Shown here: positions 36,260-57,830 of the stretch, piece by piece | Position numbering within the stretch: the stretch's first letter is position 1 | Layout of the letters: each line of letters begins with the position of its first letter | Assembly (NCBI GenBank): GCA_020063565.1 | Contig: JAICDB010000001.1 | Coordinates: forward strand, 33,056 to 97,055 | Source: Clostridiales bacterium | Lineage (GTDB): Bacteria; Bacillota; DSM-16504; Desulfitibacterales; JAICDB01 | Reading direction: 5' to 3' | Length of the DNA stretch: 64,000 bases | Notes under the pieces: generated by a model | What the model was told of the DNA's origin: nothing | Seen by the model: the letters and a program-made list of their open reading frames with translations, nothing else | Databases searched by the model: none | Translations under genes and position numbers: made by a program

Positions 36260-36310
36260 ATTTTTTTTAGTATTGATTAAATTCGCTGCTGATACTAAAA
36301 TTATAGATAA

Positions 36311-36337
36311 CAAATATATAATATTGCAAACTTACAA
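36311..36337 (+). promoter_or_regulatory. Promoter/operator element upstream of yihQ, shared with the pfk-operon leader
   Basis: CAAATATATAATATTGCAAACTTACAA contains a TATAAT (36317-36322). It shares 18 of 19 nt with 43114-43132, and AATATTGCAAA.TTACAAA with 43251-43269. Confidence 0.55.
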
Positions 36338-36358
36338 AAAATTGTCAGGGGGTCCAAA

Positions 36359-38368
36359 ATGATTAAAGTAAAAGAAGATGGTAAGCTGCTGGTTATTGAT
36401 TTTAATGGATTTGAAATTGTAAAACATTCAAATGAGATTCCTTTCCTGCACGTTGGAAGCGGTACTGCAAATTATGACATGCTTAATGGAAACTTTGAAA
36501 TTGAAGAACATTTAAATGAAAAAATTGCCTTAACCGATTACACTGTTTTGGAAGAAAAAGCTACTTCAGTTAAAGTGAAATTTTCAAGAAACGAAGTGTA
36601 CGCGGTAACTGTAAACTTTACAGAAGTTGATGGAAGGCTACATATTGATTTCCAAGAAAAACCGAAAGGCCTGAATAGAAGCTGGATAAAAATAGCTGCA
36701 CAGGAAAATGAACATATATACGGGTGCGGTGAACAGTTTTCTGAGCTTGACCTCAAGGGCAAAAAGGTTCCCTTATGGGTATCGGAGCAGGGGGTGGGCA
36801 GAAATAAAAAGGATTACCTGACCTTCCAGGCAGATGTACATGCCGGGGCAGGTGGTGACTGGTATACTACCTATTATCCCCAGCCTACTTTTGTGTCCTC
36901 TAAAAACTACTGGTGCCATGTAGAAGACTCCCACTATATGGAATTTGACTTTAGAAATGATTTGTACCATGAGCTATGTGTCTGGAGCATTCCTTCAAAG
37001 GTTATCATATCTAAAAAAAATACTGCCCTGGAAGTTCTTGAAGATTTAACAGCTTACCTGGGAAGGCAGCCTGAACTTCCTGACTGGTCCTATGATGGAG
37101 TATGGCTGGGATTACAGGGTGGTACGGAAACTGTACTTAAAAAACTTGAAAATGCTCAAAATCACGGCCTGAAGGTTGTTGCCTTATGGTGTCAAGACTG
37201 GGAAGGTAAGCGCATAACTGACTTTGGAAAACGACTTTTCTGGAATTGGGAATACCACAAAGAAATGTATCCGGATCTACCACAAACGATTAAAGAGCTC
37301 AATGAAAAGGGGATTAAGTTTTTAGGCTATATCAACACCTTCCTTGCTACTGATGGTGAAATGTATAAGGAAGCCACTAAAAAAGGTTATATAGTAAAAG
37401 ATAATGAAGGCAAAGATTATGAGGGAGCCAAGGATATGCCTGCTGTACTAATGGACTTTACTAATCCGGAAGCAGTTAATTGGATTAAAAATATAATTAA
37501 AGAAAATATGATAGGGATTGGTTTATCAGGCTGGATGTGTGATTTTGGGGAGTACCTGCCAACCGATGCTGTATTATACTCCGGTGAAAGTGCAGAAAGT
37601 TATCATAACAAGTATCCTGCAGAGTGGGCAAAGATAAATAGGGAAGCTGTCGAAGAAGCAGGCAAATTGGGCGAGGTAGTTTTCTTTACCAGGGCCGGTT
37701 ATACCGGTACTTCCAGATATTCACTTTTAATGTGGGCAGGTGACCAAACTGTTAACTGGAGTTTAGATGATGGTCTTGCCTCTGTAATACCTGCTGCTCT
37801 CTCCTTGGGAATGAGTGGCTTTGGAATATCCCATTCTGATATTGGTGGTTACACCTCACTTTACGGTGTAAAAAGGACCAAGGAACTGTTTATGAGATGG
37901 GCCGAAATGGCAGCATTCACACCTGTTATGAGAACCCATGAAGGAAACAGGCCTGATGACTGCTGGCAGTTTGACTCAGATGAAGAGACCTTATTACATT
38001 TTGCAAAGATGAGCAAAATCTATACCCATCTCAAGCCATACATTAAAGACGTAGTAAAAGAAAATGCGGAAAAGGGAATTCCCGCACAACGCCATCCGTA
38101 TATCCATTATGAAAATGATGAGGAACTTCACAAGTTGAAATACCAGTACCTCTTCGGCAGGGATTTGATGGTAGCCCCTGTTTATGAGGAAAATAAAACT
38201 AGCCGCAAGCTGTATCTGCCGGAAGATAATTGGATCCATGTTTGGACAGGAAAAGAATATGGTAAAGGGTATCATGAAGTTGAAGCTCCCTTAGGAGAAA
38301 TTCCCGTATTCTATAGGAAGGGCTCACAGTATGAAGACCTCTTTAAGCAAATTGCTGATATAAAGTAG
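36359..38368 (+). CDS. yihQ: GH31 sulfoquinovosidase (YihQ-type)
   Basis: The 669-aa ORF is colinear with my recollection of E. coli YihQ over the whole length: HIYGCGEQFS, PLWVSEQGVGRNK, LGRQPELPDW, QDWEGKRITDFGKRLFWNW (R-x-x-W sulfonate-pocket pair), GWMCDFGEYLPTD (nucleophile Asp), MWAGDQTVNWSLDDGLASV (acid/base Asp), HSDIGGYTS (pocket Tyr), THEGNRP. Confidence 0.8.
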   Translation: MIKVKEDGKLLVIDFNGFEIVKHSNEIPFLHVGSGTANYDMLNGNFEIEEHLNEKIALTDYTVLEEKATSVKVKFSRNEVYAVTVNFTEVDGRLHIDFQEKPKGLNRSWIKIAAQENEHIYGCGEQFSELDLKGKKVPLWVSEQGVGRNKKDYLTFQADVHAGAGGDWYTTYYPQPTFVSSKNYWCHVEDSHYMEFDFRNDLYHELCVWSIPSKVIISKKNTALEVLEDLTAYLGRQPELPDWSYDGVWLGLQGGTETVLKKLENAQNHGLKVVALWCQDWEGKRITDFGKRLFWNWEYHKEMYPDLPQTIKELNEKGIKFLGYINTFLATDGEMYKEATKKGYIVKDNEGKDYEGAKDMPAVLMDFTNPEAVNWIKNIIKENMIGIGLSGWMCDFGEYLPTDAVLYSGESAESYHNKYPAEWAKINREAVEEAGKLGEVVFFTRAGYTGTSRYSLLMWAGDQTVNWSLDDGLASVIPAALSLGMSGFGISHSDIGGYTSLYGVKRTKELFMRWAEMAAFTPVMRTHEGNRPDDCWQFDSDEETLLHFAKMSKIYTHLKPYIKDVVKENAEKGIPAQRHPYIHYENDEELHKLKYQYLFGRDLMVAPVYEENKTSRKLYLPEDNWIHVWTGKEYGKGYHEVEAPLGEIPVFYRKGSQYEDLFKQIADIK

Positions 38369-38382
38369 TTTTTATAACATGA

Positions 38383-38416
38383 AAAGCCAACTCACGCCTG
38401 TGTGGGTTGGCTTTTA
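38383..38416. terminator. Bidirectional terminator between yihQ and the convergent transglycosylase gene
   Basis: AAAAGCCAACTCAC / GTGGGTTGGCTTTT stem with flanking A/T runs. Confidence 0.75.
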
Positions 38417-42029: not shown

Positions 42030-42184
42030 AACTTTACGCTCCCAACATAAAGATGTGATAATCTTAGTTTATAATAAAGTAGAAAGTTAAGCAAAAAAAA
42101 GAGAAATTATATTTACCAGGATAATTAAAAAAATGAGAACCTTAAAAAAAATTCAAATTGGAATTAAATGGTTGCAAAATTTTC

Positions 42185-42237
42185 TTGAAATATGTGTTCT
42201 TTACATTATAATAAAAGTAAAGTTTGTAATATTACAA
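42185..42237 (+). promoter_or_regulatory. gntR promoter with a perfect palindromic operator just downstream of the -10
   Basis: TTGAAA (42185-42190), 16-nt spacer, TATAAT (42207-42212), then the 14-bp perfect palindrome TTGTAATATTACAA (42224-42237), which fits the GntR-type GT..AC architecture. Confidence 0.65.
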
Positions 42238-42258
42238 AAAATTGGGGAGCGGGAGACC

Positions 42259-43035
42259 ATGCAAAATAGTATTCAGAATTTAGATGCTATGCCATTACAC
42301 TACCGTATTGCATATGAATTGAGAAATAAGCTCCAGAAGGGCTATTGGAAGCCCGGTGACCTGTTTCCTACTGATAAGCAGCTTATGGAACAGTATAATG
42401 TGAGCAGTACTACAGTGCGCAGAGCTATATACGAATTAGTACAGGAAGGATGGCTTGAAAGAAAGCCTGGTAAAGGAACATTTGTAAGAAATCAAATGGT
42501 GGAAAACCTTCGTAAGCTGACAGGTTTCTTTGAAGAAATTCAATCTAAAGGTATGGTTCCGAGTGCAGAAATTATCAAAAGTGAGATTGTAACGGTAGAT
42601 AATAATTTATTGCAGGAAATTCCTCTTTTGCAGGATTTCAATGTTTCTAAGGTATATTTAATTAAAAAAATTCATAAAATGAACAATACACCTGTTGTTT
42701 ATGTGAAAAGTTTTTGGCCTGTTGATATAGGAACTGAAATTGCAAAATATGATCTAACTAAGCAAGGTGTATATAGCATTGTTCAAGATGAATTGGGGAT
42801 TTTACTGAGAGAGGCGTCCCAGACAATTTCAGCCGGTTTAGCTGATAAAGAAGAAGCTGAGGCGTTAAATATAGCGGAAAAGGCTCCAATTTTAGTTATG
42901 AACAGGGCTACCTACAGCAATGAAAGGCTTTTAGAGGTTGCTGTAAACTCCTACAGGGCGGATTTATATAGTTATAAAATTATCTTAAGTCGTAATGATA
43001 TCAAAAAGAATGCAGGCATGGTATTAAATGCCTAA
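42259..43035 (+). CDS. GntR-family (HutC/UTRA subfamily) transcriptional regulator
   Basis: The ORF was trimmed to ATG 42259 (GGGGAGCGGGAG RBS), because the longer ORF would include its own promoter and operator. The wHTH is LFPTDKQLMEQYNVSSTTVRRAIYELVQEGWLERKPGKGTFV, followed by a UTRA-like C-terminal domain. Confidence 0.85.
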   Translation: MQNSIQNLDAMPLHYRIAYELRNKLQKGYWKPGDLFPTDKQLMEQYNVSSTTVRRAIYELVQEGWLERKPGKGTFVRNQMVENLRKLTGFFEEIQSKGMVPSAEIIKSEIVTVDNNLLQEIPLLQDFNVSKVYLIKKIHKMNNTPVVYVKSFWPVDIGTEIAKYDLTKQGVYSIVQDELGILLREASQTISAGLADKEEAEALNIAEKAPILVMNRATYSNERLLEVAVNSYRADLYSYKIILSRNDIKKNAGMVLNA

Positions 43036-43075: not shown

Positions 43076-43105
43076 TTGACAGTACAATCAATTCAACTTT
43101 ATAAT
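43076..43105 (+). promoter_or_regulatory. Candidate promoter of the pfk-aldolase-ABC-isomerase operon
   Basis: TTGACA (43076-43081), 18-nt spacer, TATAAT (43100-43105). A second TATAAT at 43120-43125 lies inside the element shared with yihQ. Confidence 0.5.
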
Positions 43106-43201
43106 TATGTTAGCAAATATATAATATTACAATATTTCATTTTAATTAAAAATATGGTGTTATAATTACTTTAAGGGTTTATTAATTTTTTTAATTAAAT
43201 A

Positions 43202-43268
43202 TTGTAATATTACAAATTGTAATATTACAAAAGAATTTTTGCAATAATTAAATATTGCAAAATTACAA
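43202..43268 (+). promoter_or_regulatory. Operator array: two tandem perfect TTGTAATATTACAA palindromes plus a degenerate third copy and a 10-bp-arm inverted repeat
   Basis: The perfect copies are at 43202-43215 and 43217-43230, a 15-bp period. TTGCAAAATTACAA lies at 43255-43268. TTTTGCAATA / TATTGCAAAA is an inverted repeat at 43237-43262. Confidence 0.7.
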
Positions 43269-43327: not shown

Positions 43328-44524
43328 TTGGTTAAAGCAATTGAAGGAAACCTTCTGGTAGGTCAATCAGGAGGGCCCACACCGGTAATTAATGCTAGTT
43401 TAGCGGGAGTTATCTCTGAAGCACAAAGACATAGTAACGTCAAAACTATCTATGGAATGGAGAATGGAATTGAAGGTTTGCTACAAGGCAAGCTTAAAAA
43501 GATTCCAGAAATGTCAGAAAAAAATATCCAATTGCTGGCATCCACACCTGCCTCTGCTTTGGGAAGCTGTAGATATAAGGTGCAGGATGACGATTACCCT
43601 AAGCTTTTGCAAATATTTAAAGAAAATAATATCAGGTACTTCTTTTACATTGGTGGAAACGACTCCATGGATACATGCAACAAAATAGCCAAGCTCGCAG
43701 AGGCTGAGGGCTATGAAATGTATGTTATGGGAGTGCCTAAAACAATTGATAATGACTTGCCTCTCACTGATCACTGCCCCGGATTTGGAAGTGCAGCTCG
43801 TTTTACTGCAGTTAGTACTCTAGGAACAGGTCGCGATCTTGAAGCAATGAAAACATTTGATGATGTAACCATTGTGGAAATTATGGGTCGCCATGCTGGC
43901 TGGCTGGCTGCTTCCTCAGCGCTTTTGAAAAGGGATGTCAAAGATGCGCCACACTTAATTTACTTACCTGAAAGAACCTTTAAAATGGATAAATTCATAG
44001 AAGATGTAAAGACAGTTCATAAGGAATTAGGATATGTATTTGTAGCAATAGGAGAAGGCATTAGAGATGAAAGTGGAGAGTTTATTGGAGCAAAGAATGC
44101 TGTAAAAGATGCCTTCGGACATATTGCAATAGCCCTTAGTGAAGGACCTGCAGCTTATCTGGCAAGGACAGTAAACAAAGAACTTGGCCTGCAAGCTCGC
44201 TACAATCGAAGTGGTACAATTCAGCGAGCTTATTCAGAATCTGTCTCTGATGCTGATAGAAATGAAGCATTTATGGTTGGACAAAAGGCAGTAGAGCTTG
44301 CAGTAAAAGGTGAAACAGGAAAGATGGTAACCCTGGTTAGGGGAGAGGGAACGGAGTATAAGTGTACAACAGGAACAGCTTCCCTTGAGAAGGTGGCTAA
44401 TGTTGAAAAAGTAGTTCCAGACGAATTTATTAACGCTGAAGGCAATTTTGTAACTGAAGCATTTAAGGAATACGCATTGCCACTACTTGGAAGTAATTTG
44501 CCGGAGTATTATAGATTTAAGTAA
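43328..44524 (+). CDS. PfkA-family sugar-phosphate/sulfosugar 1-kinase with PPi-type signature residues
   Basis: 398-aa ORF with TTG start 8 nt after GAGGTG. PFK motifs are SGGPTPVINA, IGGNDS (E. coli IGGDGS), GVPKTIDND (E. coli GLPGTIDND) and EIMGRHAGW. Confidence 0.75.
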   Translation: MVKAIEGNLLVGQSGGPTPVINASLAGVISEAQRHSNVKTIYGMENGIEGLLQGKLKKIPEMSEKNIQLLASTPASALGSCRYKVQDDDYPKLLQIFKENNIRYFFYIGGNDSMDTCNKIAKLAEAEGYEMYVMGVPKTIDNDLPLTDHCPGFGSAARFTAVSTLGTGRDLEAMKTFDDVTIVEIMGRHAGWLAASSALLKRDVKDAPHLIYLPERTFKMDKFIEDVKTVHKELGYVFVAIGEGIRDESGEFIGAKNAVKDAFGHIAIALSEGPAAYLARTVNKELGLQARYNRSGTIQRAYSESVSDADRNEAFMVGQKAVELAVKGETGKMVTLVRGEGTEYKCTTGTASLEKVANVEKVVPDEFINAEGNFVTEAFKEYALPLLGSNLPEYYRFK

Positions 44525-44560
44525 TAGCAACTAGATAAAATTTTTGGGAGAGGTGTTAGT

Positions 44561-45412
44561 ATGAGTTTAGTGACATTAAAAGAAGTAATGGAGCCAAAAG
44601 ACGAAGCATTTGCTGTTGGAGCATTTAGTACTTATGACTTAAGCAGCGCTCTGGGCATAGTAGAAGGAGCTGAAGCAGTTAACCTGCCTGTTATTGCAAT
44701 GATGGGTGCACCGGTTCTTAATGTACCTGGTAATGAGAAAGTTGCTGAAACATTGATTTCATTAGCTAAAATGTCAAGTGTACCTGTTGTTGTGCATTTG
44801 GACCATGCCAAAGATTTTGCAACTTGCATGAAAGCTATTAAGTTAGGATTCAGTTCGGTTATGATTGATGGTTCGACATTAAGTCTGGAAGAAAATATTG
44901 CAGTTACCAATAAAGTAACTGAGGCTGCAAAAGCAGTAGGTGTTTCAGTAGAAGCAGAACTGGGAGCGCTTGCCGGAATTGAAGACGGAGAAGAGGTTAA
45001 GGCTCAAAAAATGACAAATCCCGAGCACATGAAAACATTTTTAGAAGCAACGGATGTTGACGGGTTAGCTGTTTCAATCGGTAATGCCCATGGATTGTAC
45101 AAGGGTGAACCTAACCTGAACTTTGAATTACTTGAAAAGCTGAACGACTTAAGTGATGTTCCCCTCATAATGCATGGTGGAACCGGTCTTACTCAAGAAC
45201 AGTTTGCCAAGGGAATTCAACTGGGAATTAAAAAGATCAATATTGGAACTGAGATCAAAAAGACAACAATTGAAACCTTTATAGAAACACACGGCAAAAA
45301 TGAAAGCGCCTGGGATATGATTGGTATTCCGAAGGCGTGCAGGGAAGCTATTTCTAAAGTTGTTGCTGACAAATTGAAATTTTATAGAAGCGGTTGGAAG
45401 GAACTGGTTTAG
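44561..45412 (+). CDS. Class II (metal-dependent) ketose-bisphosphate aldolase, FbaA/GatY/KbaY family
   Basis: 283-aa ORF with VVHLDHAKD, EAELG, IGNAHG and MHGGTG, which are characteristic of class II FBP/tagatose-bisphosphate aldolases. Confidence 0.8.
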   Translation: MSLVTLKEVMEPKDEAFAVGAFSTYDLSSALGIVEGAEAVNLPVIAMMGAPVLNVPGNEKVAETLISLAKMSSVPVVVHLDHAKDFATCMKAIKLGFSSVMIDGSTLSLEENIAVTNKVTEAAKAVGVSVEAELGALAGIEDGEEVKAQKMTNPEHMKTFLEATDVDGLAVSIGNAHGLYKGEPNLNFELLEKLNDLSDVPLIMHGGTGLTQEQFAKGIQLGIKKINIGTEIKKTTIETFIETHGKNESAWDMIGIPKACREAISKVVADKLKFYRSGWKELV

Positions 45413-45463
45413 TTGGTTGTTGACCAGTAATTGGTTGTGCCAAGCATGAAAGGGAGTGTAAAT

Positions 45464-46570
45464 ATGGCAGAAGTTAAGCTTCAGGGGATATACAAGAGGT
45501 TTAAGGATACAGTTGCAGTATCAAACTTTAACCTGGAAATCAAAGACGGTGAATTCATAGTTCTGGTAGGACCTTCCGGATGTGGGAAAAGTACAACCCT
45601 GAGAATGGTTGCCGGTTTGGAACAACCTTCAGAAGGTAAAATTTATATTGGTGATAAGGACGTAACCTATGCTGAACCCAAAAACAGAGATATAGCAATG
45701 GTATTTCAGGATTATGCGCTATATCCTCATATGAACGTATTTAAGAATATGGCATTTGGATTGCAGTTAAGAAAAATGCCCAAGGACGAAATAAAGAAGA
45801 GGGTGGAGACTGCAGCAGAACGCTTGGGAATTTCACATCTGTTGCATAGAACTCCGAGACAGCTATCAGGTGGTCAGCGTCAGAGGGTAGCTTTGGGAAG
45901 ATCGATTGTAAGGGATCCCCAGGTATTCTTGATGGACGAGCCGCTTTCTAACCTTGACGCTAAATTAAGGGTGCAAATGAGGGCTGAAATAGTTAAGCTC
46001 CAGAAAGGTTTAAATACAACTACTATCTATGTAACTCATGATCAGGTAGAAGCCATGACAATGGGTGATAGGATAGTTGTAATGAAGGATGGCTTTATGC
46101 AGCAAGTAGGTACTCCTTCAGAGATTTATCATGAACCTGCCAACATGTTTGTAGCTGGCTTTGTAGGTTCTCCTAGCATGAACTTTATTGAGGGAGAATT
46201 TGTTCAAAAGGACGGTAAATGCTTCTTTACAGCTCAAGGTATCGAAGTAGAATTACCCGGAAAGCTTTCCGACAAATCATTGTCTTCTAAGTCAGTAGTG
46301 CTTGGCATTCGTCCTGAGGATATTAGGGTAGATGTGGAAAAAACAGACAACTTAACATCTCCTGTGGAATGTAAAGTTGAATTAATTGAAGATCTAGGCG
46401 CCGAAGAAATTGTCTTTCTAAAAACAAAGGGTGGCCAAGAATTTAAAGCACGTATTTCAAGCGACCTTAGTAAAGCTCAAGCTGGTAATAATGTAAATGC
46501 ATATTTCAAGCTTAATAAGATTCATATCTTTGATGCTGAAGAAGGCAGTAAGGTACCCCTTTCTGCTTAA
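45464..46570 (+). CDS. Sugar ABC importer ATPase (MsmX/UgpC/MalK type)
   Basis: The ORF was trimmed to MAEVKLQGIYKRF after an AAAGGGAG RBS. It has Walker [10 protein letters not shown], signature LSGGQRQR, Walker B FLMDEPLSNLD and a C-terminal regulatory (TOBE-like) domain. Confidence 0.9.
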   Translation: MAEVKLQGIYKRFKDTVAVSNFNLEIKDGEFIVLVGPSGCGKSTTLRMVAGLEQPSEGKIYIGDKDVTYAEPKNRDIAMVFQDYALYPHMNVFKNMAFGLQLRKMPKDEIKKRVETAAERLGISHLLHRTPRQLSGGQRQRVALGRSIVRDPQVFLMDEPLSNLDAKLRVQMRAEIVKLQKGLNTTTIYVTHDQVEAMTMGDRIVVMKDGFMQQVGTPSEIYHEPANMFVAGFVGSPSMNFIEGEFVQKDGKCFFTAQGIEVELPGKLSDKSLSSKSVVLGIRPEDIRVDVEKTDNLTSPVECKVELIEDLGAEEIVFLKTKGGQEFKARISSDLSKAQAGNNVNAYFKLNKIHIFDAEEGSKVPLSA

Positions 46571-46696
46571 AAATCTTTAGACTTCATAAAGGGGGTGGGG
46601 TAAAGAGTAAAAGATAACAAGTCAGTCTTAATAAAATTCTAGGAATGTAAATTACGGGACGATTTAATCTATTTAATTTATGGGAGGGTGAACAAT

Positions 46697-47962
46697 TTGA
46701 ACTTCAAGAAGCTGAGTGTGTTGGCAATTGTAGTATTGTTGGTTGGTGCATTTGTTGTAGGTTGTGGTGGAGGAAATGATGAACCTGCAGATCAAGGCGC
46801 AGATTCCGGTGAAAAACAAGTAACAATTAGATTTGCTCACTGGCGTGGAGAAGATAAGGAAGCATTTGAAAAAGTAATTGCTAAGTTCAATGAAGAATAT
46901 CCAAACATCAAAGTTCAGCAGGATATTAGTGGCTCAGAGCAGTACAGAGCAAAAATACAAGCAGAATTGCAATCAGATGCCGGACCTGACGTTTTCACTA
47001 CTTTCCCCGGTGCACATTTTGCTACTTTACAGGAAGCAGGAGTATATGCCGATCTTTCAGGCGCTGAATTCCTGGATCGTTTCTCCCCTCACCTGTTACT
47101 GGCAGGACAGGCTGATGGAAAACAATATGCAGTTCCATACCAGCTGGTATTCAATATCCCCGTATACAATAAAGGGTTATTTGAAAAAGCAGGTGTAGAG
47201 CCTGCAGACAGTTGGGAAGGATTCTTGGAAATGTGTCAGACTTTAAAGGATAACGGTATTACACCTATCATCTTTGACAGTGAAATTGGCCCCGGCCAAT
47301 TTATGAACCCAATGTTAATGAACAATATGCCTACCGATGATGCCTTAACCAGGGTAGAAAAAGGCGAGCTTAAGTTGACAGATGACTGGTTCGTTAAAAC
47401 TCTTGCTCAATTTAAAGAACTTAAGGACAAAGGATTTATGCAGGATGACGTACTTGGAACCAGAAAAGCTGGCGCTGCTGCGTTATTTGCTCAGGAACAA
47501 GGCGCCATGTTAGCTCAAGGGTCATATATGATGGCATCTAACAAACAGCAAAACCCCGATATCAAGCAGGGACTACTTGCACCAATAACAGTACCGGCAG
47601 ATCAAGCAAAGTATGAAGGTATCCATACTTCAACATTTATGATTGGTATTAATGCAAAATCCGAAAAACAAGAAGCTGCTAAGAAGTTTATGGAATTCTT
47701 GTTTAGACCGGAAATTTCCGCAATGTATGCTAATGTAACAGGACAAATGTTGACAGTTAATGGTGTTGAATATGAATCGCCTGAATTAAATGAACAGGCT
47801 AAGTGGCTAGAGAAGAAGACATTATTCCAGCCTAGATACACTTTGACAGTTCAAGAAGTTGAGGATGCAATAGTAAACTCAATTAAAGACGTATTAGGTG
47901 GTATGTCGCCTGAAGAAGCTGCTGCTAAGGCTCAGGAAGAAGTTGAAAGATCTATTAAATAA
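46697..47962 (+). CDS. Extracellular solute-binding lipoprotein (carbohydrate family 1)
   Basis: TTG 46697 lies 9 nt after GGGAGG. The lipoprotein signal has the lipobox FVVGC, and the body is a typical sugar SBP. Confidence 0.85.
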   Translation: MNFKKLSVLAIVVLLVGAFVVGCGGGNDEPADQGADSGEKQVTIRFAHWRGEDKEAFEKVIAKFNEEYPNIKVQQDISGSEQYRAKIQAELQSDAGPDVFTTFPGAHFATLQEAGVYADLSGAEFLDRFSPHLLLAGQADGKQYAVPYQLVFNIPVYNKGLFEKAGVEPADSWEGFLEMCQTLKDNGITPIIFDSEIGPGQFMNPMLMNNMPTDDALTRVEKGELKLTDDWFVKTLAQFKELKDKGFMQDDVLGTRKAGAAALFAQEQGAMLAQGSYMMASNKQQNPDIKQGLLAPITVPADQAKYEGIHTSTFMIGINAKSEKQEAAKKFMEFLFRPEISAMYANVTGQMLTVNGVEYESPELNEQAKWLEKKTLFQPRYTLTVQEVEDAIVNSIKDVLGGMSPEEAAAKAQEEVERSIK

Positions 47963-48040
47963 GGTTTAGAGGGATACTTTCAGCGACAAGAGAGAGGGCA
48001 TGTACCTCTCTCTTATCCTGATAACTAAGGAGGAAAAAAT

Positions 48041-48919
48041 ATGAAAAAGTACTGGGGGCTCTTACCATTTATCATACCAGGGGTCATATTATATACAATC
48101 TTTTTTGCCATACCCTTAGTTTCCTCACTGGCTCTTAGTTTTACAGACTGGAACGGTATATCCCCTGATTATAATTTTGTTGGCTTAAGCAATTATGTTG
48201 AGATGATTACAGATGACCCTATTTTCCATCAAACATTTGGTAACAACCTAAAATACATGTTTTTTGTAGTTATCTTCCAGACATTATTTGCACTTATTTT
48301 TGCCATGTTTTTGGCTAAAAACAGTAAACTCAATGTTTTCTACAGGGCGCTATTCTTTTTCCCCACTGTTATCGCTTCAGTTTCGGTGGCTTTTATCTGG
48401 ATCTTTGTTTATGATCCAAGCATCGGTTCATTAAATACAATCCTTAAATTATTTGGCCTGGACTTTTTGAAACAGTCCTGGTTGGGGGACAAAAACATTG
48501 CAATTTACAGCCTTGCTATAACACAGGTTTGGATGCATACTGGACAGGTGATGATAATCTTTATAGCAGGTTTACAATCTATACCAAAATCACTGTATGA
48601 GGTTGCCAGAATAGAAGGAGCATCAAGGTGGCAGACCTTCCGTAATGTAACATGGCCGCTTTTAGCTCCTGCTGCAACAATTGTTGTAGCATATACCACA
48701 TTGCAGTCATTCAAGGCATTTGACCTCATTCTGGCAATGACCGATGGTGGACCATCCTATGCAACTGAAATATTATCACTCTTTATTTACCACGAAGCAT
48801 TTAGAAACTTCAAATTTGGCTATGCTGCAGCATCAGCGGTGATCTTCTTAATTATCGTATCATTGATTACAATAATTCAATTTAGAATTTTAAATGCCAA
48901 TAAGGTAACCTACAATTAA
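48041..48919 (+). CDS. Sugar ABC permease (UgpA/MalF type)
   Basis: 292-aa ORF with six TM helices and the EAA-loop sequence EVARIEGASRWQTFRNVTWPLL. Confidence 0.9.
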   Translation: MKKYWGLLPFIIPGVILYTIFFAIPLVSSLALSFTDWNGISPDYNFVGLSNYVEMITDDPIFHQTFGNNLKYMFFVVIFQTLFALIFAMFLAKNSKLNVFYRALFFFPTVIASVSVAFIWIFVYDPSIGSLNTILKLFGLDFLKQSWLGDKNIAIYSLAITQVWMHTGQVMIIFIAGLQSIPKSLYEVARIEGASRWQTFRNVTWPLLAPAATIVVAYTTLQSFKAFDLILAMTDGGPSYATEILSLFIYHEAFRNFKFGYAAASAVIFLIIVSLITIIQFRILNANKVTYN

Positions 48920-48933
48920 GGGGTGTATATCAA

Positions 48934-49806
48934 GTGAGTAATTCAAAATTAGATTTACAAAAAGCAGACAAAAAACCAAAAGAAAATATTACGAAGGTTG
49001 ATATTTGGAGACAGTTTCCTCTCCTCATTTATGCAATAATTATCATTACACCTCTTTCACTGGTATTTTTTGCAACTTTTAAAAACCTTAAGCAGCTATA
49101 TTCAGATCCTTTGGGGGTACCTGAAAGTTGGAGCCTTGCCAACTATAAAGCGCTCTTTGCAAATGAGAATATGTTGATATACTTTAAAAACAGTGTAATA
49201 GTAACGTGTATTTCTGTTTTCAGTATTCTTTTACTTGCAAGTATGATTGCCTATGCAATAGTAAGATTACCGAAGTGGATAGGAAATATAGTCTTTGGGT
49301 TTGTAGTAGTGGGAATGATGGTACCTACTCAGGTGAATATGATACCACAGTATCTTTTACTGGATAGACTTAATCTATTGGATAAGCATCTGGGGTTAAT
49401 CTGCGTAACGGTGGCTACATTTTTACCTATTGCAGTATTTATTTTAACAGGATTTATGAAAACTTTGCCGAAAGGTTTAATTGAAGCCGCAAGCATCGAT
49501 GGCGCCTCACACTGGCAAATTTACTCAAGGGTGATGTTGCCTTTATCCGGTCCGTCTCTTGCTACGACAGCTATTTTCTGCTTTGTTATTGTCTGGAACG
49601 ATCTTCTTTATCCGCTGTTGTTCATAAAGTCGGACAGCTTAAAGACAATGCCCCTGGCGCTGCTAGAATTCCAGGGTCAGTATTTGACAAACTACCCAAT
49701 GATTTTCTCGGGAGTAGTGGTAGCTTCTATTCCGATGATTATAATTTATGTTTTCCTTCAGCGCTACTTTATTGCCGGTATGACAGCAGGATCTATGAAA
49801 GGATAA
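48934..49806 (+). CDS. Sugar ABC permease (UgpE/MalG type)
   Basis: 290-aa ORF with the EAA-loop sequence EAASIDGASHWQIYSRVMLPL. Confidence 0.9.
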   Translation: MSNSKLDLQKADKKPKENITKVDIWRQFPLLIYAIIIITPLSLVFFATFKNLKQLYSDPLGVPESWSLANYKALFANENMLIYFKNSVIVTCISVFSILLLASMIAYAIVRLPKWIGNIVFGFVVVGMMVPTQVNMIPQYLLLDRLNLLDKHLGLICVTVATFLPIAVFILTGFMKTLPKGLIEAASIDGASHWQIYSRVMLPLSGPSLATTAIFCFVIVWNDLLYPLLFIKSDSLKTMPLALLEFQGQYLTNYPMIFSGVVVASIPMIIIYVFLQRYFIAGMTAGSMKG

Positions 49807-49932
49807 GTAGAAGTATATTTATATTATGTAAGATTAATGTAATGTCCGGGAACTGTGGAGGGTTTCACTGTTTCTGGAGCTGTGTTAAATGCAAAGTTTG
49901 TAATAATACAAGATTTCTTAGGAGGGCAGTTT

Positions 49933-51273
49933 ATGGAAACCTTAAAACCTGTATACCTGCCAATGGGTAGAACTACATTCCATATGGAAAGTGCCACTGA
50001 TTACTACAACCGTTCCTGTAAAGTAATCAAAGAACTTGCCCCGGGGGCAGAAATGCCGCAAGAATTACTTACTGATTTAGATATGTTAAACAACTATCTT
50101 GATGAAATCAAAAATAAGGATATAGATATTGCAGTTGTTCAAAGTACTACCTTTGTAGATGCTACCTTTACAATAGAAATCGTCAGAAAGCTTTCCTGTC
50201 CCGTATTAGTATGGTGTGTGCGAGAACCCGTTATTGATGGTAGTCGCCTCAGATTAAACTCTCTAACCGGTGGTTTTGCTGCCGGCAATACTTTAAGTAC
50301 CTTTGGCAGAACATTTGATTTTGTATTCGGTAATCCCGAAGAGGAACAAGTGCAGAAAAAATTATCTGCATACTTCAAAGCTGCATCTGTTGTAAAGGGA
50401 TTGAAGAACTTGACTTTAGGGGTAGTAGGAAATGTACCTCCGGGCTTTTTCTTTGGAGAAGAACTCAGTATGAATCTCTTAAATGTCATAGGTGCAAAAT
50501 TGGAACGCTTAGACCTTAACAGTCTGATTCAAGAGGCGAAAGAATTGAAAACCGGTGAGTATGAAGAGGCACTTGCAGAATTGAAGGAGAAAATCTTCGG
50601 CATTGAAGAAATTGAAGAGGAACAAGTAGATAAAAACGCTCGCTTTAGAACAGTTCTTAAAAAACATGTGGAAGAAAAAGGAATTAAGGCAATTGCTAGT
50701 CGTTGCTGGCCTACAGTATTCCAGGAGTATAATGCTGCAATTTGTGCCACCCTTTCTTTATTTACTGAAGAAGGAATTGTATCTTCCTGTGAAGCTGATA
50801 TTGGCGGCGCAATCAGCATGTATATCCAGAAACAAATTACAGGAGAACCTCCATATTTCGGAGACCCTGTTTCATTAGATGAAGAAAAGAATTCTATTAT
50901 TTACTGGCATTGTGGTGCAGGAGCTTGTTCACTTGCTAGAACCGATACAGGCGCCCGCGCAGGAAGACATCCTAACCGTAAGCTTGGGCTGTCATTGGAA
51001 TTTGGTCTTAAGGACGGCAGGGTTACAGTTTGCCGCTTCGGTAAGGGGCCAAACGGTTACCGTCTTTTTATCATGGCTGGTGAAGCGCTGGATGAACCTC
51101 AAAAGTTTCTTGGAACATCTGTTGAAGTACGCCCTGACGGAAATGCAGCTGAAATTGTAAATTCAGCAATTAATGAAGGTTGGGAACCTCACTTTTCAGT
51201 GGTTTACGGAGATATAACCGAGGAGTTAAAGGCTGTAGCCAAACTATTAAACATTGAAGTTGTAGAGTATTAA
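49933..51273 (+). CDS. L-fucose/L-arabinose isomerase-family aldose-ketose isomerase (short form)
   Basis: The ORF was trimmed to METLKPVYLP after an AGGAGGG RBS. The family resemblance (SSCEADIGGA, YWHCGAG, GWEPHFSVVYGD) is recalled by eye and not verified. Confidence 0.6.
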   Translation: METLKPVYLPMGRTTFHMESATDYYNRSCKVIKELAPGAEMPQELLTDLDMLNNYLDEIKNKDIDIAVVQSTTFVDATFTIEIVRKLSCPVLVWCVREPVIDGSRLRLNSLTGGFAAGNTLSTFGRTFDFVFGNPEEEQVQKKLSAYFKAASVVKGLKNLTLGVVGNVPPGFFFGEELSMNLLNVIGAKLERLDLNSLIQEAKELKTGEYEEALAELKEKIFGIEEIEEEQVDKNARFRTVLKKHVEEKGIKAIASRCWPTVFQEYNAAICATLSLFTEEGIVSSCEADIGGAISMYIQKQITGEPPYFGDPVSLDEEKNSIIYWHCGAGACSLARTDTGARAGRHPNRKLGLSLEFGLKDGRVTVCRFGKGPNGYRLFIMAGEALDEPQKFLGTSVEVRPDGNAAEIVNSAINEGWEPHFSVVYGDITEELKAVAKLLNIEVVEY

Positions 51274-51288
51274 GAGAGGGGACCTGTG

Positions 51289-52401
51289 ATGCTTGCCGCC
51301 GATTTGCAAAAGGAGATAGCAGTAAAAGAAGAACGAGTGAACAAGCTAATAAAAGAAAAAGGTTTAGACGGTATTTGCCTTTTTAAGGCTGCTAACTTTC
51401 ACTGGTTTACAGCCGGTGGAACCAACAGGGTTGTGACAGGTTCTGAAAAGGGATGTGCCGTAATATTAATTATGGAAGGTAAGAAGTATTTAATTTCACC
51501 TTCCAATGAAATCGACAGGCTCCTTGCAGAACAACTCCCCGATCAAGGTTTTGAGAGATGTACTTTCTACTGGTATGAAACTCCCATGAAAGTAATCAAA
51601 GAACTAGCCGGAGATAAGAGGCTAGGTAGTGATATAGCAGTTCCGGGAATGACTGAGATCGGAGTTGATATAGACAGGTTGCGCTTTTCCCTGACATCGC
51701 AGGAAGTGGAAAAGGCAAGAAAAATTGCGGAAATCTCCTCTCGTGAAACAGCAGCATTATGTGCTAGTCTCAAACCAGGCATGACCGAATATGAGATAAC
51801 GGCTTTACTTTCTGAAACACTTTTAAGAGAAGGGATAAATCCTGCAGTACTACTTGTTGGTACTGATGAGAGGGTGTTTACCTGCAGGCACCCGGTACCT
51901 GTAGAAAAGAAACTTCAAAAGTATGCACTCATCAGTCTGGTAGGGGAAAAGTGGGGATTGCACGTTACACTGACTCGTGCAGTATATTTTGGCAGCCTGC
52001 CGGAAGATTTGAAGAAAAAACAGGAACTTGTCAATCGGGTGGATGCCACATTTATAGCAAATACCATTGCAGGAAAGATGAGTGATGATGTATTTAATGC
52101 AGGTAAAGAAGAATATGCTTGTGTTGGCTATCCTGATGAATGGAAAATGCATCACCAGGGTGGAGCCATAGGATATGCTCCCCGTGAATATCGTGGCGGG
52201 GAAGGCAGAAATGAAAAAGTTATAGTAAATCAAATGTTTGGGTGGAACCCAACACTGCAGGGAACAAAAAGTGAAGATACAATTTTAGTTAATGCTAAAG
52301 GAATTCCAACTATAATAACGAATGTACCCGGGTGGTGGCCTACCCAGGAAATTAACGTAAATGATTCAATTATAAATCGTCCCATGATTTTAGAAATATA
52401 G
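51289..52401 (+). CDS. M24 (creatinase/prolidase, pita-bread fold)-like protein lacking most metal ligands
   Basis: 370-aa ORF with a creatinase/prolidase-type N-domain and a pita-bread C-domain. By-eye alignment to PepP/prolidase motifs shows D->L, D->T, H->G and E->N at four of the five metal-ligand positions. Confidence 0.6.
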   Translation: MLAADLQKEIAVKEERVNKLIKEKGLDGICLFKAANFHWFTAGGTNRVVTGSEKGCAVILIMEGKKYLISPSNEIDRLLAEQLPDQGFERCTFYWYETPMKVIKELAGDKRLGSDIAVPGMTEIGVDIDRLRFSLTSQEVEKARKIAEISSRETAALCASLKPGMTEYEITALLSETLLREGINPAVLLVGTDERVFTCRHPVPVEKKLQKYALISLVGEKWGLHVTLTRAVYFGSLPEDLKKKQELVNRVDATFIANTIAGKMSDDVFNAGKEEYACVGYPDEWKMHHQGGAIGYAPREYRGGEGRNEKVIVNQMFGWNPTLQGTKSEDTILVNAKGIPTIITNVPGWWPTQEINVNDSIINRPMILEI

Positions 52402-52410
52402 GTTATTTTC

Positions 52411-52468
52411 AGGCCGCCCCCTTTCCTCCTAATCCTCCTCCCGGGATTGGGGGCTGGCTGTTTTTTTA
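52411..52468 (+). terminator. Strong intrinsic terminator inside the operon, between the M24-like gene and the moaD-like gene
   Basis: CAGGCCGCCCCC ... GGGGGCTGGCTG stem enclosing a C/T-rich loop, followed by TTTTTTT. Confidence 0.65.
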
Positions 52469-52497
52469 ATTTCACTTTTTCATTGGGGGTTTTTTTG

Positions 52498-52722
52498 ATG
52501 ATTACCGTTAAATTTAGCCCTGGAACAAAAGCCTATAAAAAACACGGTTCCCGGATTGAAATGACTTGGCAAGACGGAACTATTGATGATTTACTTGCCA
52601 AATTGGCAGTTGACAAAAGGGAAGTAGGTAGTGTTCTTGTCAATAATTCTCCCAAAAATTTAGATGAAAAATTGCAGGATAACTGTGAAGTTTATATCCT
52701 CCCTGTAATTTGCGGTGGTTAA
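52498..52722 (+). CDS. ThiS/MoaD-like beta-grasp protein ending in Gly-Gly
   Basis: 74-aa ORF trimmed to MITVKF. The C-terminus is ...LPVICGG. It lies immediately upstream of the ferredoxin and AOR genes, as in AOR maturation/accessory arrangements. Confidence 0.6.
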   Translation: MITVKFSPGTKAYKKHGSRIEMTWQDGTIDDLLAKLAVDKREVGSVLVNNSPKNLDEKLQDNCEVYILPVICGG

Positions 52723-52752
52723 TAGAAACTGGAAGATTAGGGTGGTGAAATA

Positions 52753-53235
52753 ATGTCCAGAAAAGTATTGACAGTTGAAAAAAGCAAGTGTATTGGTTGC
52801 AGAATTTGTGAACAGTGGTGTAGCTTGACCCATCACGGTGTAATAAACCCTGCCAAAGCAAGGGTAAAGGTAACTCGAATTGAAGAATCCGGTGTTGATG
52901 TGCCTGTTATTTGTACCCAGTGCAGCAAGGCTGCATGTATAGCAGCATGTCCTGAAGGCGCTTTATCCAAAAATTCTAAAACAGGTGCAATAAAGGTAGA
53001 TAAGGAAAAATGTACTGCGTGCAGAAAATGTGTAACTGCTTGCCCTAATGCTGCAATATCAGTCCACCCGGAAGATGAGTATGTTTTAATCTGTGATTTG
53101 TGTAACGGCAAGCCCAAATGTGTGGAAAACTGTCCTGAAAAAGCTCTGCAGTATCTCCCCATTGAAACCAGTGAACGAATTTATAGAAGCAAAGTAGTCA
53201 GGGATACTGCAAAAGGGGGTAAGCGCTGTGGCTAA
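52753..53235 (+). CDS. 4x[4Fe-4S]-type polyferredoxin (AOR electron-transfer subunit)
   Basis: 160-aa ORF with four Cys clusters (CIGCRICEQWC, CTQCSKAACIAACP, CTACRKCVTACP, CDLCNGKPKCVENCP). It overlaps the AOR start. Confidence 0.85.
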   Translation: MSRKVLTVEKSKCIGCRICEQWCSLTHHGVINPAKARVKVTRIEESGVDVPVICTQCSKAACIAACPEGALSKNSKTGAIKVDKEKCTACRKCVTACPNAAISVHPEDEYVLICDLCNGKPKCVENCPEKALQYLPIETSERIYRSKVVRDTAKGGKRCG

Positions 53236-55030
53236 TCTAGGAGCAGTCAACGGAAAACTTTTAAGGGTTAACCTAACAACTGGTAACGCTATAGTAGAGG
53301 ATATACCTCAAGAAATATATACAAAATATTTTGGCGGCAGGGGTGCCGGGACCAGGTATCTCTTCGATGAAGTGCCTACAGATACTGATCCTTTAAGTGA
53401 AAATAACAAGCTGATATTTTTAAACGGCCCTATGGCCGGTACCATGGCTCCCGGAAGCAACAAAATAGCAGTGACTTTTAAATCCCCTGCTACAAACGGT
53501 ATTGCTTCATCACTATGTGGTGGTCATTTTGGTCCTGAGTTGAAGTTTGCAGGTTATGATGCTTTGATAATTGAAGGAAAATCTGAAAAGCCTGTTTACC
53601 TCTGGATTCAAAATGATGAAGTTCAAATTAAAGATGCTTCTTCATACTGGGGCAAAAATATTCCTGAAACAGGAGAAGGAATTAAGAAGGAACTTGGTGG
53701 AGACGAAAACATTCATGTAGCTTGTATCGGCCCGGCAGGAGAAAACTTAAATGTAATAGCCTGCATTACAGCCGAAAGACACAGGGAATTTGGACGCCCC
53801 GGTGCCGGAGCTGTTATGGGTTCTAAGAACTTAAAAGCAATAGCTATCAAGGGAACTCAAGATGTTAAGCCTGCTAAAGCAGGAAAAATGGCTAATTATG
53901 TTAAGGAACTGTATAAAGAGTTTGCAAACAATCCCAAGGCAAACGCCAGAAGAAACTATGGAACAGTTGAAATGGTAGACGGTATCAATAAGCTCGGATT
54001 TTGGTCCACAAGAAACTTCAGCCAGGGGCAGTTTGAAGGTGCCGACAAATTAACAGGTCCAATGATGAGGCAGGAGATAGTTGTAGAAGACACTTCCTGT
54101 TATGCATGTCCTATTGCCTGCGGTAAAGTTTCCTGTGTAGAATCCGAAAAATACGGTACAGTTCATATCGAAGGGCCTGAATTTGAGACATTGGGGCTTT
54201 TAGGGCCAAACTGCGGCATAGGTGATTGGGAATATATCCTGAAAGCCGCAGAAGTATGTGACTATAACGGTATGGATACGATTTCTGCCGGGGCAACAGT
54301 ATCCATGGCTATGGAATGCTATGAAAAAGGAATAATTACAAAAGAAGATACCGGTGGTATAGAATTAAAATTCGGAAACGGTGAAGCATTGATTGCAATC
54401 CTGGAGAAAATGGCAAAAAGAGAAGGAATCGGCGATATTTTGGCTCAAGGGTTAAAGGTAGCTGCAGAGAAGTTTGGTGCGCCTGAACTGGCAATGCACA
54501 GCAAGGGAGTTTCGCCTGCAACCTATGACCCAAGAGGCAGCAAGGGGATGGCAGTAACCTATGCCACTTCACCTAAGGGTGCCCATCATATGATATCACC
54601 GACTATGGGGGCAGAAATTGCAGGTGACCGTTTTGCAGAAACAGGAAAGGCAGCTATGATCAAGGATACCCAGATCCAAATGGCGCTTGTCGATTCACTT
54701 GGTTACTGTTCAAGTATGAGATTTGTAATGCAGGTCGACCATCAGCTTGAACTCTTCAAGCTTTCCACAGGTTTGGAAATGACTAAGGAAGACTTTTATA
54801 CTGTGGGAGAACGGGTGCTCAACCTTGAAAGGCAGTATAACGTAAACTGCGGCATGACCAGAAAAGACGACAGCCTCCCCAAGAGATTCCTCAAGGAAGC
54901 AATGGAGGACGGTCCTAGCAAAGGACAAACAATAAACCTGGATTTAATGCTCGATGAGTTTTATGCGGAAATGGGCTGGGATAAAGACGGTAAACCAACA
55001 GAAGAAAAATTGGCAAGCCTTGGATTATAA
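53228..55030 (+). CDS. Tungsten-type aldehyde:ferredoxin oxidoreductase (AOR family)
   Basis: 600-aa ORF with the AOR N-terminal domain (GKLLRVNLTTG...YFGGRGAG), the cluster-binding context CYACPIACGK, and full-length resemblance to the AOR family. Confidence 0.85.
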   Translation: MANLGAVNGKLLRVNLTTGNAIVEDIPQEIYTKYFGGRGAGTRYLFDEVPTDTDPLSENNKLIFLNGPMAGTMAPGSNKIAVTFKSPATNGIASSLCGGHFGPELKFAGYDALIIEGKSEKPVYLWIQNDEVQIKDASSYWGKNIPETGEGIKKELGGDENIHVACIGPAGENLNVIACITAERHREFGRPGAGAVMGSKNLKAIAIKGTQDVKPAKAGKMANYVKELYKEFANNPKANARRNYGTVEMVDGINKLGFWSTRNFSQGQFEGADKLTGPMMRQEIVVEDTSCYACPIACGKVSCVESEKYGTVHIEGPEFETLGLLGPNCGIGDWEYILKAAEVCDYNGMDTISAGATVSMAMECYEKGIITKEDTGGIELKFGNGEALIAILEKMAKREGIGDILAQGLKVAAEKFGAPELAMHSKGVSPATYDPRGSKGMAVTYATSPKGAHHMISPTMGAEIAGDRFAETGKAAMIKDTQIQMALVDSLGYCSSMRFVMQVDHQLELFKLSTGLEMTKEDFYTVGERVLNLERQYNVNCGMTRKDDSLPKRFLKEAMEDGPSKGQTINLDLMLDEFYAEMGWDKDGKPTEEKLASLGL

Positions 55031-55096
55031 TATAATATCGGCCGGTAGCCCTTTTATGGGCACCGGCTGTAATTATGGTAGAAAAGAAGGGTTAAA

Positions 55097-55993
55097 ATGC
55101 CAGGATTGGTAAGTGTTTTAGTGGCTGCAACGGGTAATGGACTCTATCTAACTTTAAGTAAGCTTGTATTAGCTTCAAACTCCCCGGTACTCTTTGGTTT
55201 TTTTGTAATGGGCCTTACGGTACTTGTGATAGGAAGCTATATTGTCTATAAATTCGGTTTTAAAAAAGCTGTAGAAATCATTTTAAATTACTGGGTATTT
55301 CTGGTTATAGTGGGGTGTTTCAGTTCTTTATTAAATTTTCTTAATTTTGCAGGTTTAATATACAGCAGTGCCATTAACTCGGCAATTATTAACAGGCTCG
55401 ATGTCTTTTTTACTGCCTTACTTGGAGGAATATTTTTTGGTGAAAGACTTCAAAAGAATGATTGGCTAGCAGTACTTTTTATGATGCTAGGTGTATTTTT
55501 GGTATTAAGGATTGATTTTTCGCAGTTAACATTAAATACTGGAGATATTTTCTTTCTTATAAGCACTTTTTTGCAGGCGGTTAATGCCCAGTTCATACGT
55601 TATAAACTTACAGAAGTCCCCGGGCCTATCATAGCATTTTGTAACACAGGTATTTGCACAACTGTATATTTGTTTTCAAGTATCTTTTTGGAATACTGGG
55701 TTCAAATACAAGGTTTTGCCGGTTTTAGATTAATAACAATTATCTGCGGTTTACTCTTTGTTTTACAATTACTCTTGTATTATGGCGGGCTGAAAAAATT
55801 ACCTACCTGGCTGGCAAGAGCTTTGTATCTAGTAGCTCCGGTAGTTGGTACTGTCAGCAGCATTCTGTTATTAAACGAAAATTTTTATATAGAACAACTC
55901 TATGGAATGCTGCTTGTAGGAATTGGTGTTATCATTATATCTCTAGGACAGAAGAAAGTTAAAAAAAATCAAATATTGAAAGAAAGTATATAA
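55097..55993 (+). CDS. EamA/DMT-family transporter (10 TM)
   Basis: 298-aa hydrophobic ORF with duplicated 5-TM EamA-like halves. Confidence 0.75.
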   Translation: MPGLVSVLVAATGNGLYLTLSKLVLASNSPVLFGFFVMGLTVLVIGSYIVYKFGFKKAVEIILNYWVFLVIVGCFSSLLNFLNFAGLIYSSAINSAIINRLDVFFTALLGGIFFGERLQKNDWLAVLFMMLGVFLVLRIDFSQLTLNTGDIFFLISTFLQAVNAQFIRYKLTEVPGPIIAFCNTGICTTVYLFSSIFLEYWVQIQGFAGFRLITIICGLLFVLQLLLYYGGLKKLPTWLARALYLVAPVVGTVSSILLLNENFYIEQLYGMLLVGIGVIIISLGQKKVKKNQILKESI

Positions 55994-56070: not shown

Positions 56071-56112
56071 CGCAATTTGATATTGCTGTGCAATATTATA
56101 TTGCGTTTCTTG
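56071..56112 (+). promoter_or_regulatory. Long AT-rich hairpin / double palindrome in the glpK upstream region (terminator-like or operator)
   Basis: CGCAATTTGATATTGC-TGT-GCAATATTATATTGCG is a 16-bp stem with one mismatch and one G-T pair, followed by TTTCTT. It contains two GCAAT-N5-ATTGC palindromes (56072-56086, 56090-56104); a third copy lies at 56165-56179. Confidence 0.5.
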
Positions 56113-57814: not shown

Positions 57815-57830
57815 AAGGAGGAATGACTCC

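Follow-up and report, generated by a model that had tools for sequence, protein, structure and literature searches.

Sulfoquinovosidases of the YihQ type and a homologue in a Clostridiales genome

The founding sulfoquinovosidase (SQase) of glycoside hydrolase family 31 (GH31) is YihQ of Escherichia coli (structures 5AED, 5AEE and 5OHT), whose gene lies inside the yih cluster, between yihP and yihR, together with the DeoR-type regulator CsqR. SQases of the YihQ type, classed as GH31_13 in CAZy, release the plant sulfo-sugar from the glycerol to which it is bound. Two SQases from Bacillota, BmSQase of Bacillus megaterium (8R56) and SftG of Eubacterium rectale (6PNR; activity on para-nitrophenyl sulfoquinovoside published in PMC11968277), serve transaldolase-type (sulfo-TAL/SFT) pathways. 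Clusters of the second sulfo-Embden–Meyerhof–Parnas type (sulfo-EMP2), as in Bacillus urumqiensis (PMC9594981), combine an SqvD/SftI isomerase, a phosphofructokinase (PFK)-family kinase and a class II aldolase with a GntR regulator and a CUT1 ATP-binding cassette (ABC) importer. Many sulfoquinovose (SQ) clusters have no classical SQase gene (PMC10755693), and SQ-glycerol has been argued to be the natural substrate of intracellular SQases of this kind (PMC12780224). Here we characterise a YihQ-like GH31 gene in a 64,000-nucleotide (nt) stretch of a Clostridiales metagenome-assembled genome (MAG; GCA_020063565.1, contig JAICDB010000001.1, positions 33,056 to 97,055), referred to below as the window, in which this gene is physically separated from a putative SQ pathway operon.

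The explanation that best accounts for the observations as a whole, with a probability of about 0.88, is that the gene encodes a retaining GH31 SQase which forms its own transcription unit, belongs to a local GntR regulon and feeds a sulfo-EMP2-like operon. The gene and its translation signal are as follows:

36359..38368, forward strand: SQase gene (GH31, YihQ/SftG type), 669 amino acids (aa), ATG start
36347..36352, forward strand: ribosome-binding site AGGGGG, 6 nt before the SQase ATG, read from the sequence

The strand opposite this open reading frame (ORF) is closed by many stops. When the protein was compared with all Protein Data Bank (PDB) chains by phmmer, full-length matches were obtained to 8R56 (E 3e-249; according to its title, the B. 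megaterium SQase bound to SQ-aziridine), 5AED (YihQ; E 2e-248), 6PNR (SftG; E 5e-233), and 5OHS and 5OHY (Agrobacterium tumefaciens SQase; E about 1e-193, with 3e-193 for 5OHS), while the best GH31 match outside the SQases was the xylosidase YicI (E 1e-44). Overall identity was 53% to YihQ, over the full length, versus 24% to YicI. The three GH31 domains (Pfam PF13802, PF01055 and PF21365) all scored above their gathering cut-offs, giving the architecture of an N-terminal beta-sandwich, a (beta/alpha)8 barrel and a C-terminal beta domain that is also seen in YihQ. An AlphaFold2 model built on 26 homologues (predicted local distance difference test 84.8, predicted template modelling score 0.88) superposed on four SQase crystal structures with template modelling (TM) scores of 0.92–0.95, compared with 0.72 for YicI; BmSQase (0.95) and SftG (0.93) are the best matches to the window SQase in sequence and fold taken together, and the score against YihQ was 0.94.

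The active site was examined by aligning the window protein with YihQ and YicI, both taken from the K-12 genome NC_000913.3, using MAFFT. The following window positions correspond to YihQ positions:

Q253: YihQ Q262
Q279: YihQ Q288
R292: YihQ R301, sulfonate pocket
W295: YihQ W304, sulfonate pocket
D395: YihQ D405, nucleophile
D462: YihQ D472, acid/base
Y498: YihQ Y508, sulfonate pocket

The window protein thus carries the same Q-Q-R-W-D-D-Y set as YihQ. The published sulfonate pocket consists of Arg301, Trp304 and, through a water molecule, Tyr508 (PMC8006165), and the Q/E-RWY sulfonate-recognition motif of Q288, R301, W304 and Y508 (PMC12780224) is found in the window SQase as Q279, R292, W295 and Y498. 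YicI has D or A, depending on the alignment, at the Arg position and F at the Tyr position. Both carboxylate positions, D395 and D462, are invariant across 121 homologues, and the acid/base residue could be pinned to D462 because the chain of the YihQ D472N mutant (5AEE) departs from the wild type exactly opposite this residue in the HMMER alignment. An initial annotation made from the letters of the window had described a YihQ-like GH31 enzyme with the full SQase signature, quoting the peptides FGKRLFWNW, HSDIGGYTS, WMCDFGEYLPTD (nucleophile) and MWAGDQ. All four occur in the translation, and the Arg/Trp/Tyr set, nucleophile and acid/base proposed there fall on homologous YihQ positions. Its expectation that a GH31 phylogeny would place the protein with the SQases also held: in a FastTree of the 121 homologues plus YihQ, the window protein lies inside a tight YihQ-like clade on a long stem, far from YicI, although with YicI as the sole outgroup and root this is a coarse test of placement.

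Could the gene instead encode a generic GH31 alpha-glucosidase or alpha-xylosidase? Both the NCBIfam model and most source names of the homologues read 'alpha-glucosidase'. This name is, however, a legacy label: the model concerned, PRK10426, is the YihQ equivalog (983 bits on the window SQase against a cut-off of 553), and RefSeq now annotates E. coli yihQ as sulfoquinovosidase. True glucosidases and xylosidases match some 200 orders of magnitude more weakly and lack the pocket residues, which makes a generic activity barely conceivable. The N-terminus carries no hydrophobic signal sequence, and the protein is therefore taken to be cytoplasmic. Judged by its sequence, the gene product is a cytoplasmic retaining GH31 SQase of the YihQ/SftG/BmSQase type and a further member of a well-known family. 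Sequence, signature residues, position in the tree and predicted fold all lend full support to this assignment, and SQ glycosides are the predicted substrates. The gene is the only one of GH31 in the genome (an 81%-complete MAG of 2.36 Mb), which also encodes a single SftI-like isomerase; near-identical DNA is present in subsurface, oil-production-facility and soil metagenomes.

Probable transcription unit and operator-like boxes

Regulatory features were found on both sides of the SQase gene, around a downstream gntR gene and ahead of the pathway operon:

36273..36301, forward strand: SQase promoter-like site, −35 TTGATT, 17-nt spacer, −10 TAAAAT (consensus scan, 9/12)
36311..36329, forward strand: operator-like box CAAATATATAATATTGCAA, 19 nt, downstream of the SQase −10
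38382..38415, no strand: hairpin (14-bp stem) separating the convergent SQase and SLT genes, T-runs on both sides
42133..43035, forward strand: GntR/HutC-type regulator, winged helix plus UTRA domain (Pfam GntR and UTRA)
42185-42212: gntR promoter, TTGAAA-16-TATAAT
42224..42237, no strand: perfect palindrome TTGTAATATTACAA, after the gntR promoter and before the probable gntR start at 42259
43076..43268, forward strand: operon control region, promoter plus boxes before the kinase gene
56089..56100, no strand: box-like 12-mer TGCAATATTATA in the gap before glpK, from a genome-wide motif scan

The −35 and −10 hexamers and the box are kept upstream of the SQase in an alignment of five genomes whose SQase proteins are ~70% identical, and the ABC exporter genes that precede the SQase in the window adjoin it in none of the relatives' loci; together, these two observations argue for an independent promoter. 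At the other end, the hairpin was not listed by a simple terminator scan and was revealed by folding of the region (dG −21.3 kcal/mol, z −4.18, 0 of 200 shuffles as stable). It is probably a bidirectional intrinsic terminator and, lying with its T-runs after the SQase stop codon, would therefore end the SQase transcript. We infer from these elements that the gene is likely monocistronic. The initial annotation had called it monocistronic with its own terminator; the hairpin and promoter-like site agree with this, but no terminator was detected after the ABC exporter genes, a point to which we return below.

The boxes connect the SQase with the operon. The SQase box has the core ATATAATATTGCAA (36316-36329), a degenerate version of the palindrome TTGTAATATTACAA. 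Perfect copies of this palindrome number three genome-wide and all belong to the SQ locus, where one precedes gntR and two precede the kinase gene. The 19-mer CAAATATATAATATTRCAA, with one R position, matches exactly at 36311 and at 43114 (43114-43132) and nowhere else, either in the window (0.02 expected per 64 kb) or in the whole 2.36-Mb genome. It begins 9 nt after the −10 hexamer at the SQase and 8 nt after the perfect sigma-70 consensus promoter of the operon (43076-43105), whose control region additionally holds a pair of perfect palindromes (43202-43230) and a single degenerate copy (43255-43268). The 12-mer core TRYAATATTRYA is present 15 times in 2.36 Mb. Six of these copies fall in the 20 kb of the SQ locus, each of them in a 5' region and one of them ahead of glpK (56089); in the rest of the genome, most box-like 12-mers are located within ORFs or before unrelated genes. 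Similar boxes precede SQase, gntR and operon genes in relatives, and the core of the SQase box is kept upstream of the orthologues in loci L014–L017 (L-numbers denote homologue loci from genome collections).

The SQase can be tied to the pathway because its 19-nt box is shared with the operon promoter at only two sites in the genome, and the same operator-like promoter sequence is common to the SQase and the other predicted targets of the regulator. On the strength of these DNA patterns the SQase, although physically detached, very probably belongs to the local GntR/HutC regulon, and the regulator encoded at 42133-43035 is the presumed repressor binding the boxes. Orthologues of this regulator have 255–260 aa and adjoin the operons of relatives; its true start is probably M43 (ATG at 42259), preceded by a ribosome-binding site and by the palindrome at 42224. 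The longest-ORF starts of both gntR (42133-42261) and the isomerase gene (49855-49950) are probably too far upstream. The family match of the isomerase starts only at residue 33, and the extended 5' part of its gene contains a near-perfect box (49898-49911).

Pathway operon and gene order in relatives

Upstream of the SQase, between it and the operon, and from there to beyond the operon, the window contains the following genes:

32442-36259, forward strand: ABC exporter half-transporter pair, upstream of the SQase
38429-39085, reverse strand: SLT transglycosylase, convergent with the SQase
39370-40440, forward strand: DUF362/ferredoxin gene
40483-41100, reverse strand: HEAT-repeat protein gene
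41190-42029, reverse strand: C-N hydrolase gene
43328..55993, forward strand: sulfo-EMP2-like pathway operon (Pfam and NCBIfam matches)
56324-61802: glpK and glpABC-like genes (Pfam FGGY, DAO and CCG domains), following the SQ operon

The first two operon genes code for a PFK-family kinase and a class II aldolase. A CUT1 ABC importer (ATPase, binding protein and two permeases) comes next, followed in turn by an SftI/SqvD-type SQ isomerase, an M24-like protein, a ferredoxin, a tungsten-type aldehyde:ferredoxin oxidoreductase and, last, an EamA exporter. The first part of the operon follows the published sulfo-EMP2 logic (PMC9594981): isomerase, kinase and aldolase are of the same kinds as in the B. 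urumqiensis-type clusters and in two Paenibacillus loci (L020 and L021), which also share with the window a GntR regulator and a CUT1 importer. In contrast, these sulfo-EMP2 enzymes are non-orthologous to those of the E. coli pathway, and where BmSQase and SftG serve transaldolase-type pathways, the window SQase is paired with a kinase/aldolase operon and a tungsten-type aldehyde oxidoreductase. The window lacks the DUF4867 (SqvB) gene that sulfo-EMP2 clusters usually contain. The M24/creatinase-fold protein gene (51286-52401) stands directly after that of the SQ isomerase, and is conserved in the same position, with 57% protein identity, in the related species genome G003. The glpK/glpABC-like genes also follow the SQ operon in G003, and a glpK lies near the Paenibacillus cluster L021; in the window, their place beside the SQ operon fits the use of glycerol freed from SQ-glycerol by the SQase.

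The SQase is separated from gntR by 3.8 kb and from the operon kinase gene by 5 kb, in contrast to E. coli, where yihQ is embedded in its cluster and the regulator is of another type. The initial annotation had listed the exporter pair upstream, the convergent transglycosylase and four unrelated genes before the operon, all of which were found, and had regarded an SQase standing alone about 4 kb from its pathway as unusual. The physical separation is real, but the layout is common to four relatives and the box is shared with the operon, so that the gene is less isolated than it appeared. A composition profile across 30–46 kb was free of anomalies that might have pointed to a recent arrival of the four filler genes.

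Among 40 related species genomes, an SQase was present in G003 alone (70% identity), where it lies within the cluster, flanked by the aldolase and the ABC importer. The nearest relatives of the protein (68–71% identity) are instead encoded in MAGs of Clostridia, Bacillota and Peptococcales (L014–L018, including P0003, named 'sulfoquinovosidase' by NCBI), and resemble the window SQase in detached position, promoter and box. In the four of these with enough flanking DNA (L014, L016, L017 and L018), the SQase is followed by 3.3–6.5 kb of other genes and then by gntR-aldolase-kinase; the L014–L018 MAGs thus differ from the window in the reversed order of aldolase and kinase, as well as in their filler genes (GH116, LOG-family, polysaccharide deacetylase, 2-hydroxyacid dehydrogenase and TrmB). 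Genomic association with SQ catabolic genes is kept in these four loci and in G003. In the Paenibacillus loci, by contrast, the SQase lies within the operon, between the permeases and the isomerase, whereas in the window and the four Clostridia/Peptococcales MAGs it is a separate unit upstream of gntR. Across the 16 SQase loci sampled, 8 showed neither a recognisable sulfo-EMP or EMP2 gene nor an isomerase gene within the available flank, several of the contigs being short. Because the four nearest relatives share the layout, and half of the sampled SQase loci are without pathway genes, we regard the detached SQase as a lineage trait, neither rare nor an oddity of this genome.

The comparison yielded some further observations. 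In G003, the class II aldolase gene is divergent from the SQase and abuts genes of the molybdenum aldehyde-oxidase/xanthine-dehydrogenase type (L010:15701-18439 and L010:18583-19431; a 2Fe-2S subunit and a split molybdenum cofactor-binding subunit), and the 39 kb examined yielded no tungsten aldehyde:ferredoxin oxidoreductase, PFK-type kinase or gntR. YihQ-like proteins with 43–52% identity are encoded on MAG contigs of Promethearchaeota (Asgard) and Bathyarchaeota (L023, L025 and L026), with no recognisable sulfo-EMP or EMP2 genes in the available flanks. A Leptospirales MAG carries an SQase homologue (L028:10001-12017) in two frames, with the motif positions one base out of register, which reflects either a frameshifted gene or an assembly error.

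Predicted role and competing explanations

According to the proposed mechanism, SQ-glycerol, and possibly other SQ glycosides, would enter the cell, presumably through the CUT1-type ABC importer that the neighbouring operon encodes, and be cleaved in the cytoplasm by two-step retaining hydrolysis, in which D395 would attack C1 as nucleophile with D462 as acid/base. The 6-sulfonate would be held by R292, W295 and, through a water, Y498, with the neutral Q253/Q279 pair corresponding to the E. coli form. Of the predicted products, alpha-sulfoquinovose would pass to the SftI-type isomerase, kinase and aldolase of the 43328-55993 operon, and glycerol to GlpK and the GlpABC-like dehydrogenase (56324-61802). 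Expression would proceed from the SQase's own unit, defined by the promoter-like site, the box just past the −10 and the terminator, and would be repressed by the GntR regulator.

Several observations weigh against this reading. The SQase promoter match is weak (9/12) and lies in an AT-rich region, 61 such matches having been found against 40 expected; 3 of the 14 positions of the SQase box mismatch the perfect palindrome; and the 99-nt gap between the ABC exporter genes and the SQase contained no terminator-like fold by either scan or folding, so that some read-through is possible. In a comparison with solved structures, the binding protein of the operon resembles SmoF, which binds SQ-glycerol, only distantly (E 1e-10, below many generic sugar-binding proteins). 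Finally, 36 of the 121 closest homologues have Gln in place of the sulfonate-binding Arg. The initial annotation had held that the R-x-x-W pair sets SQases apart from generic GH31 enzymes; YicI does differ at the Arg, but with the Gln forms the signature becomes less diagnostic for the clade, even though the window SQase itself has the Arg.

The first three of these points would fit a true SQase whose transcripts stem chiefly from read-through of the ABC exporter genes, which lie on the same strand, or are made constitutively, with a box that is an AT-rich coincidence or a remnant outside GntR control. We consider this improbable given the exactness of the 19-mer at only two genomic sites, its location at the same offset from the −10 hexamer at both (9 and 8 nt, as above) and the retention of box and hexamers upstream of the SQase in four further genomes, where no ABC exporter precedes it.

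A YihQ-clade enzyme acting on another substrate, such as an alpha-glycoside of a 6-modified glucose or another SQ conjugate, in a partly separate and perhaps GH116-linked role, would be compatible with the variation of the Arg and Tyr pocket positions among close homologues, with the importer, whose substrate is presumed, and with a glycosidase gene found in three relatives. In these, a GH116-family gene (809–821 aa; L016:12025-14490, L017:4817-7246 and L018:2240-4669) begins 17–140 nt after the SQase on the same strand, an arrangement that suggests an SQase-GH116 operon there. The window has no GH116 gene after its SQase, the pocket is of the complete E. coli type, and the control box is shared with the operon for SQ isomerase, kinase and aldolase; this alternative therefore appears very improbable, and hydrolysis of SQ glycosides for the operon is the reading that we retain.

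The Gln form deserves separate description. Gln replaces the counterpart of YihQ R301 in ~30% of the nearest YihQ-like proteins (FGKQLMW), among them the G003 protein inside its SQ cluster (P0002, L011:686-2698; Gln codon CAG at L011:1562-1564). The Lys/Arg preceding this position is retained in 35 of the 36 Gln forms and lost in some Arg forms (FGYR). Although the window SQase has an Arg codon, CGA, it has several lineage-marking residues in common with the Gln group. No mention of the variant was found in the SQase literature searched, and the replacement of a sulfonate-binding Arg by Gln may matter more to SQase enzymology than the window protein itself.

More tentatively, the detached SQase unit could be a conserved design of the Clostridia/Peptococcales lineage and not an accident of rearrangement, with leaky basal SQase making the releasing sugar, an idea that we regard as rather doubtful. 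The SQase promoter would be guarded by a single degenerate operator and the core operon by four boxes, two of them perfect, and basal SQase would convert the first SQ-glycerol to be taken up into the repressor-releasing sugar. If so, the genes between SQase and gntR, which vary among genomes, would indicate a site where insertions are tolerated between two units of one regulon.

The SQase assignment fixes the entry step of the SQ pathway in an uncultured anaerobe of subsurface, oil-facility and soil environments, in which the unusual parts of the pathway are the downstream enzymes, namely the pyrophosphate-type kinase and the tungsten aldehyde oxidoreductase. Surveys that expect yihQ inside its cluster can miss or mis-link such pathways, because the SQase gene can be several kilobases distant from the other genes and connected to them only through a shared operator.

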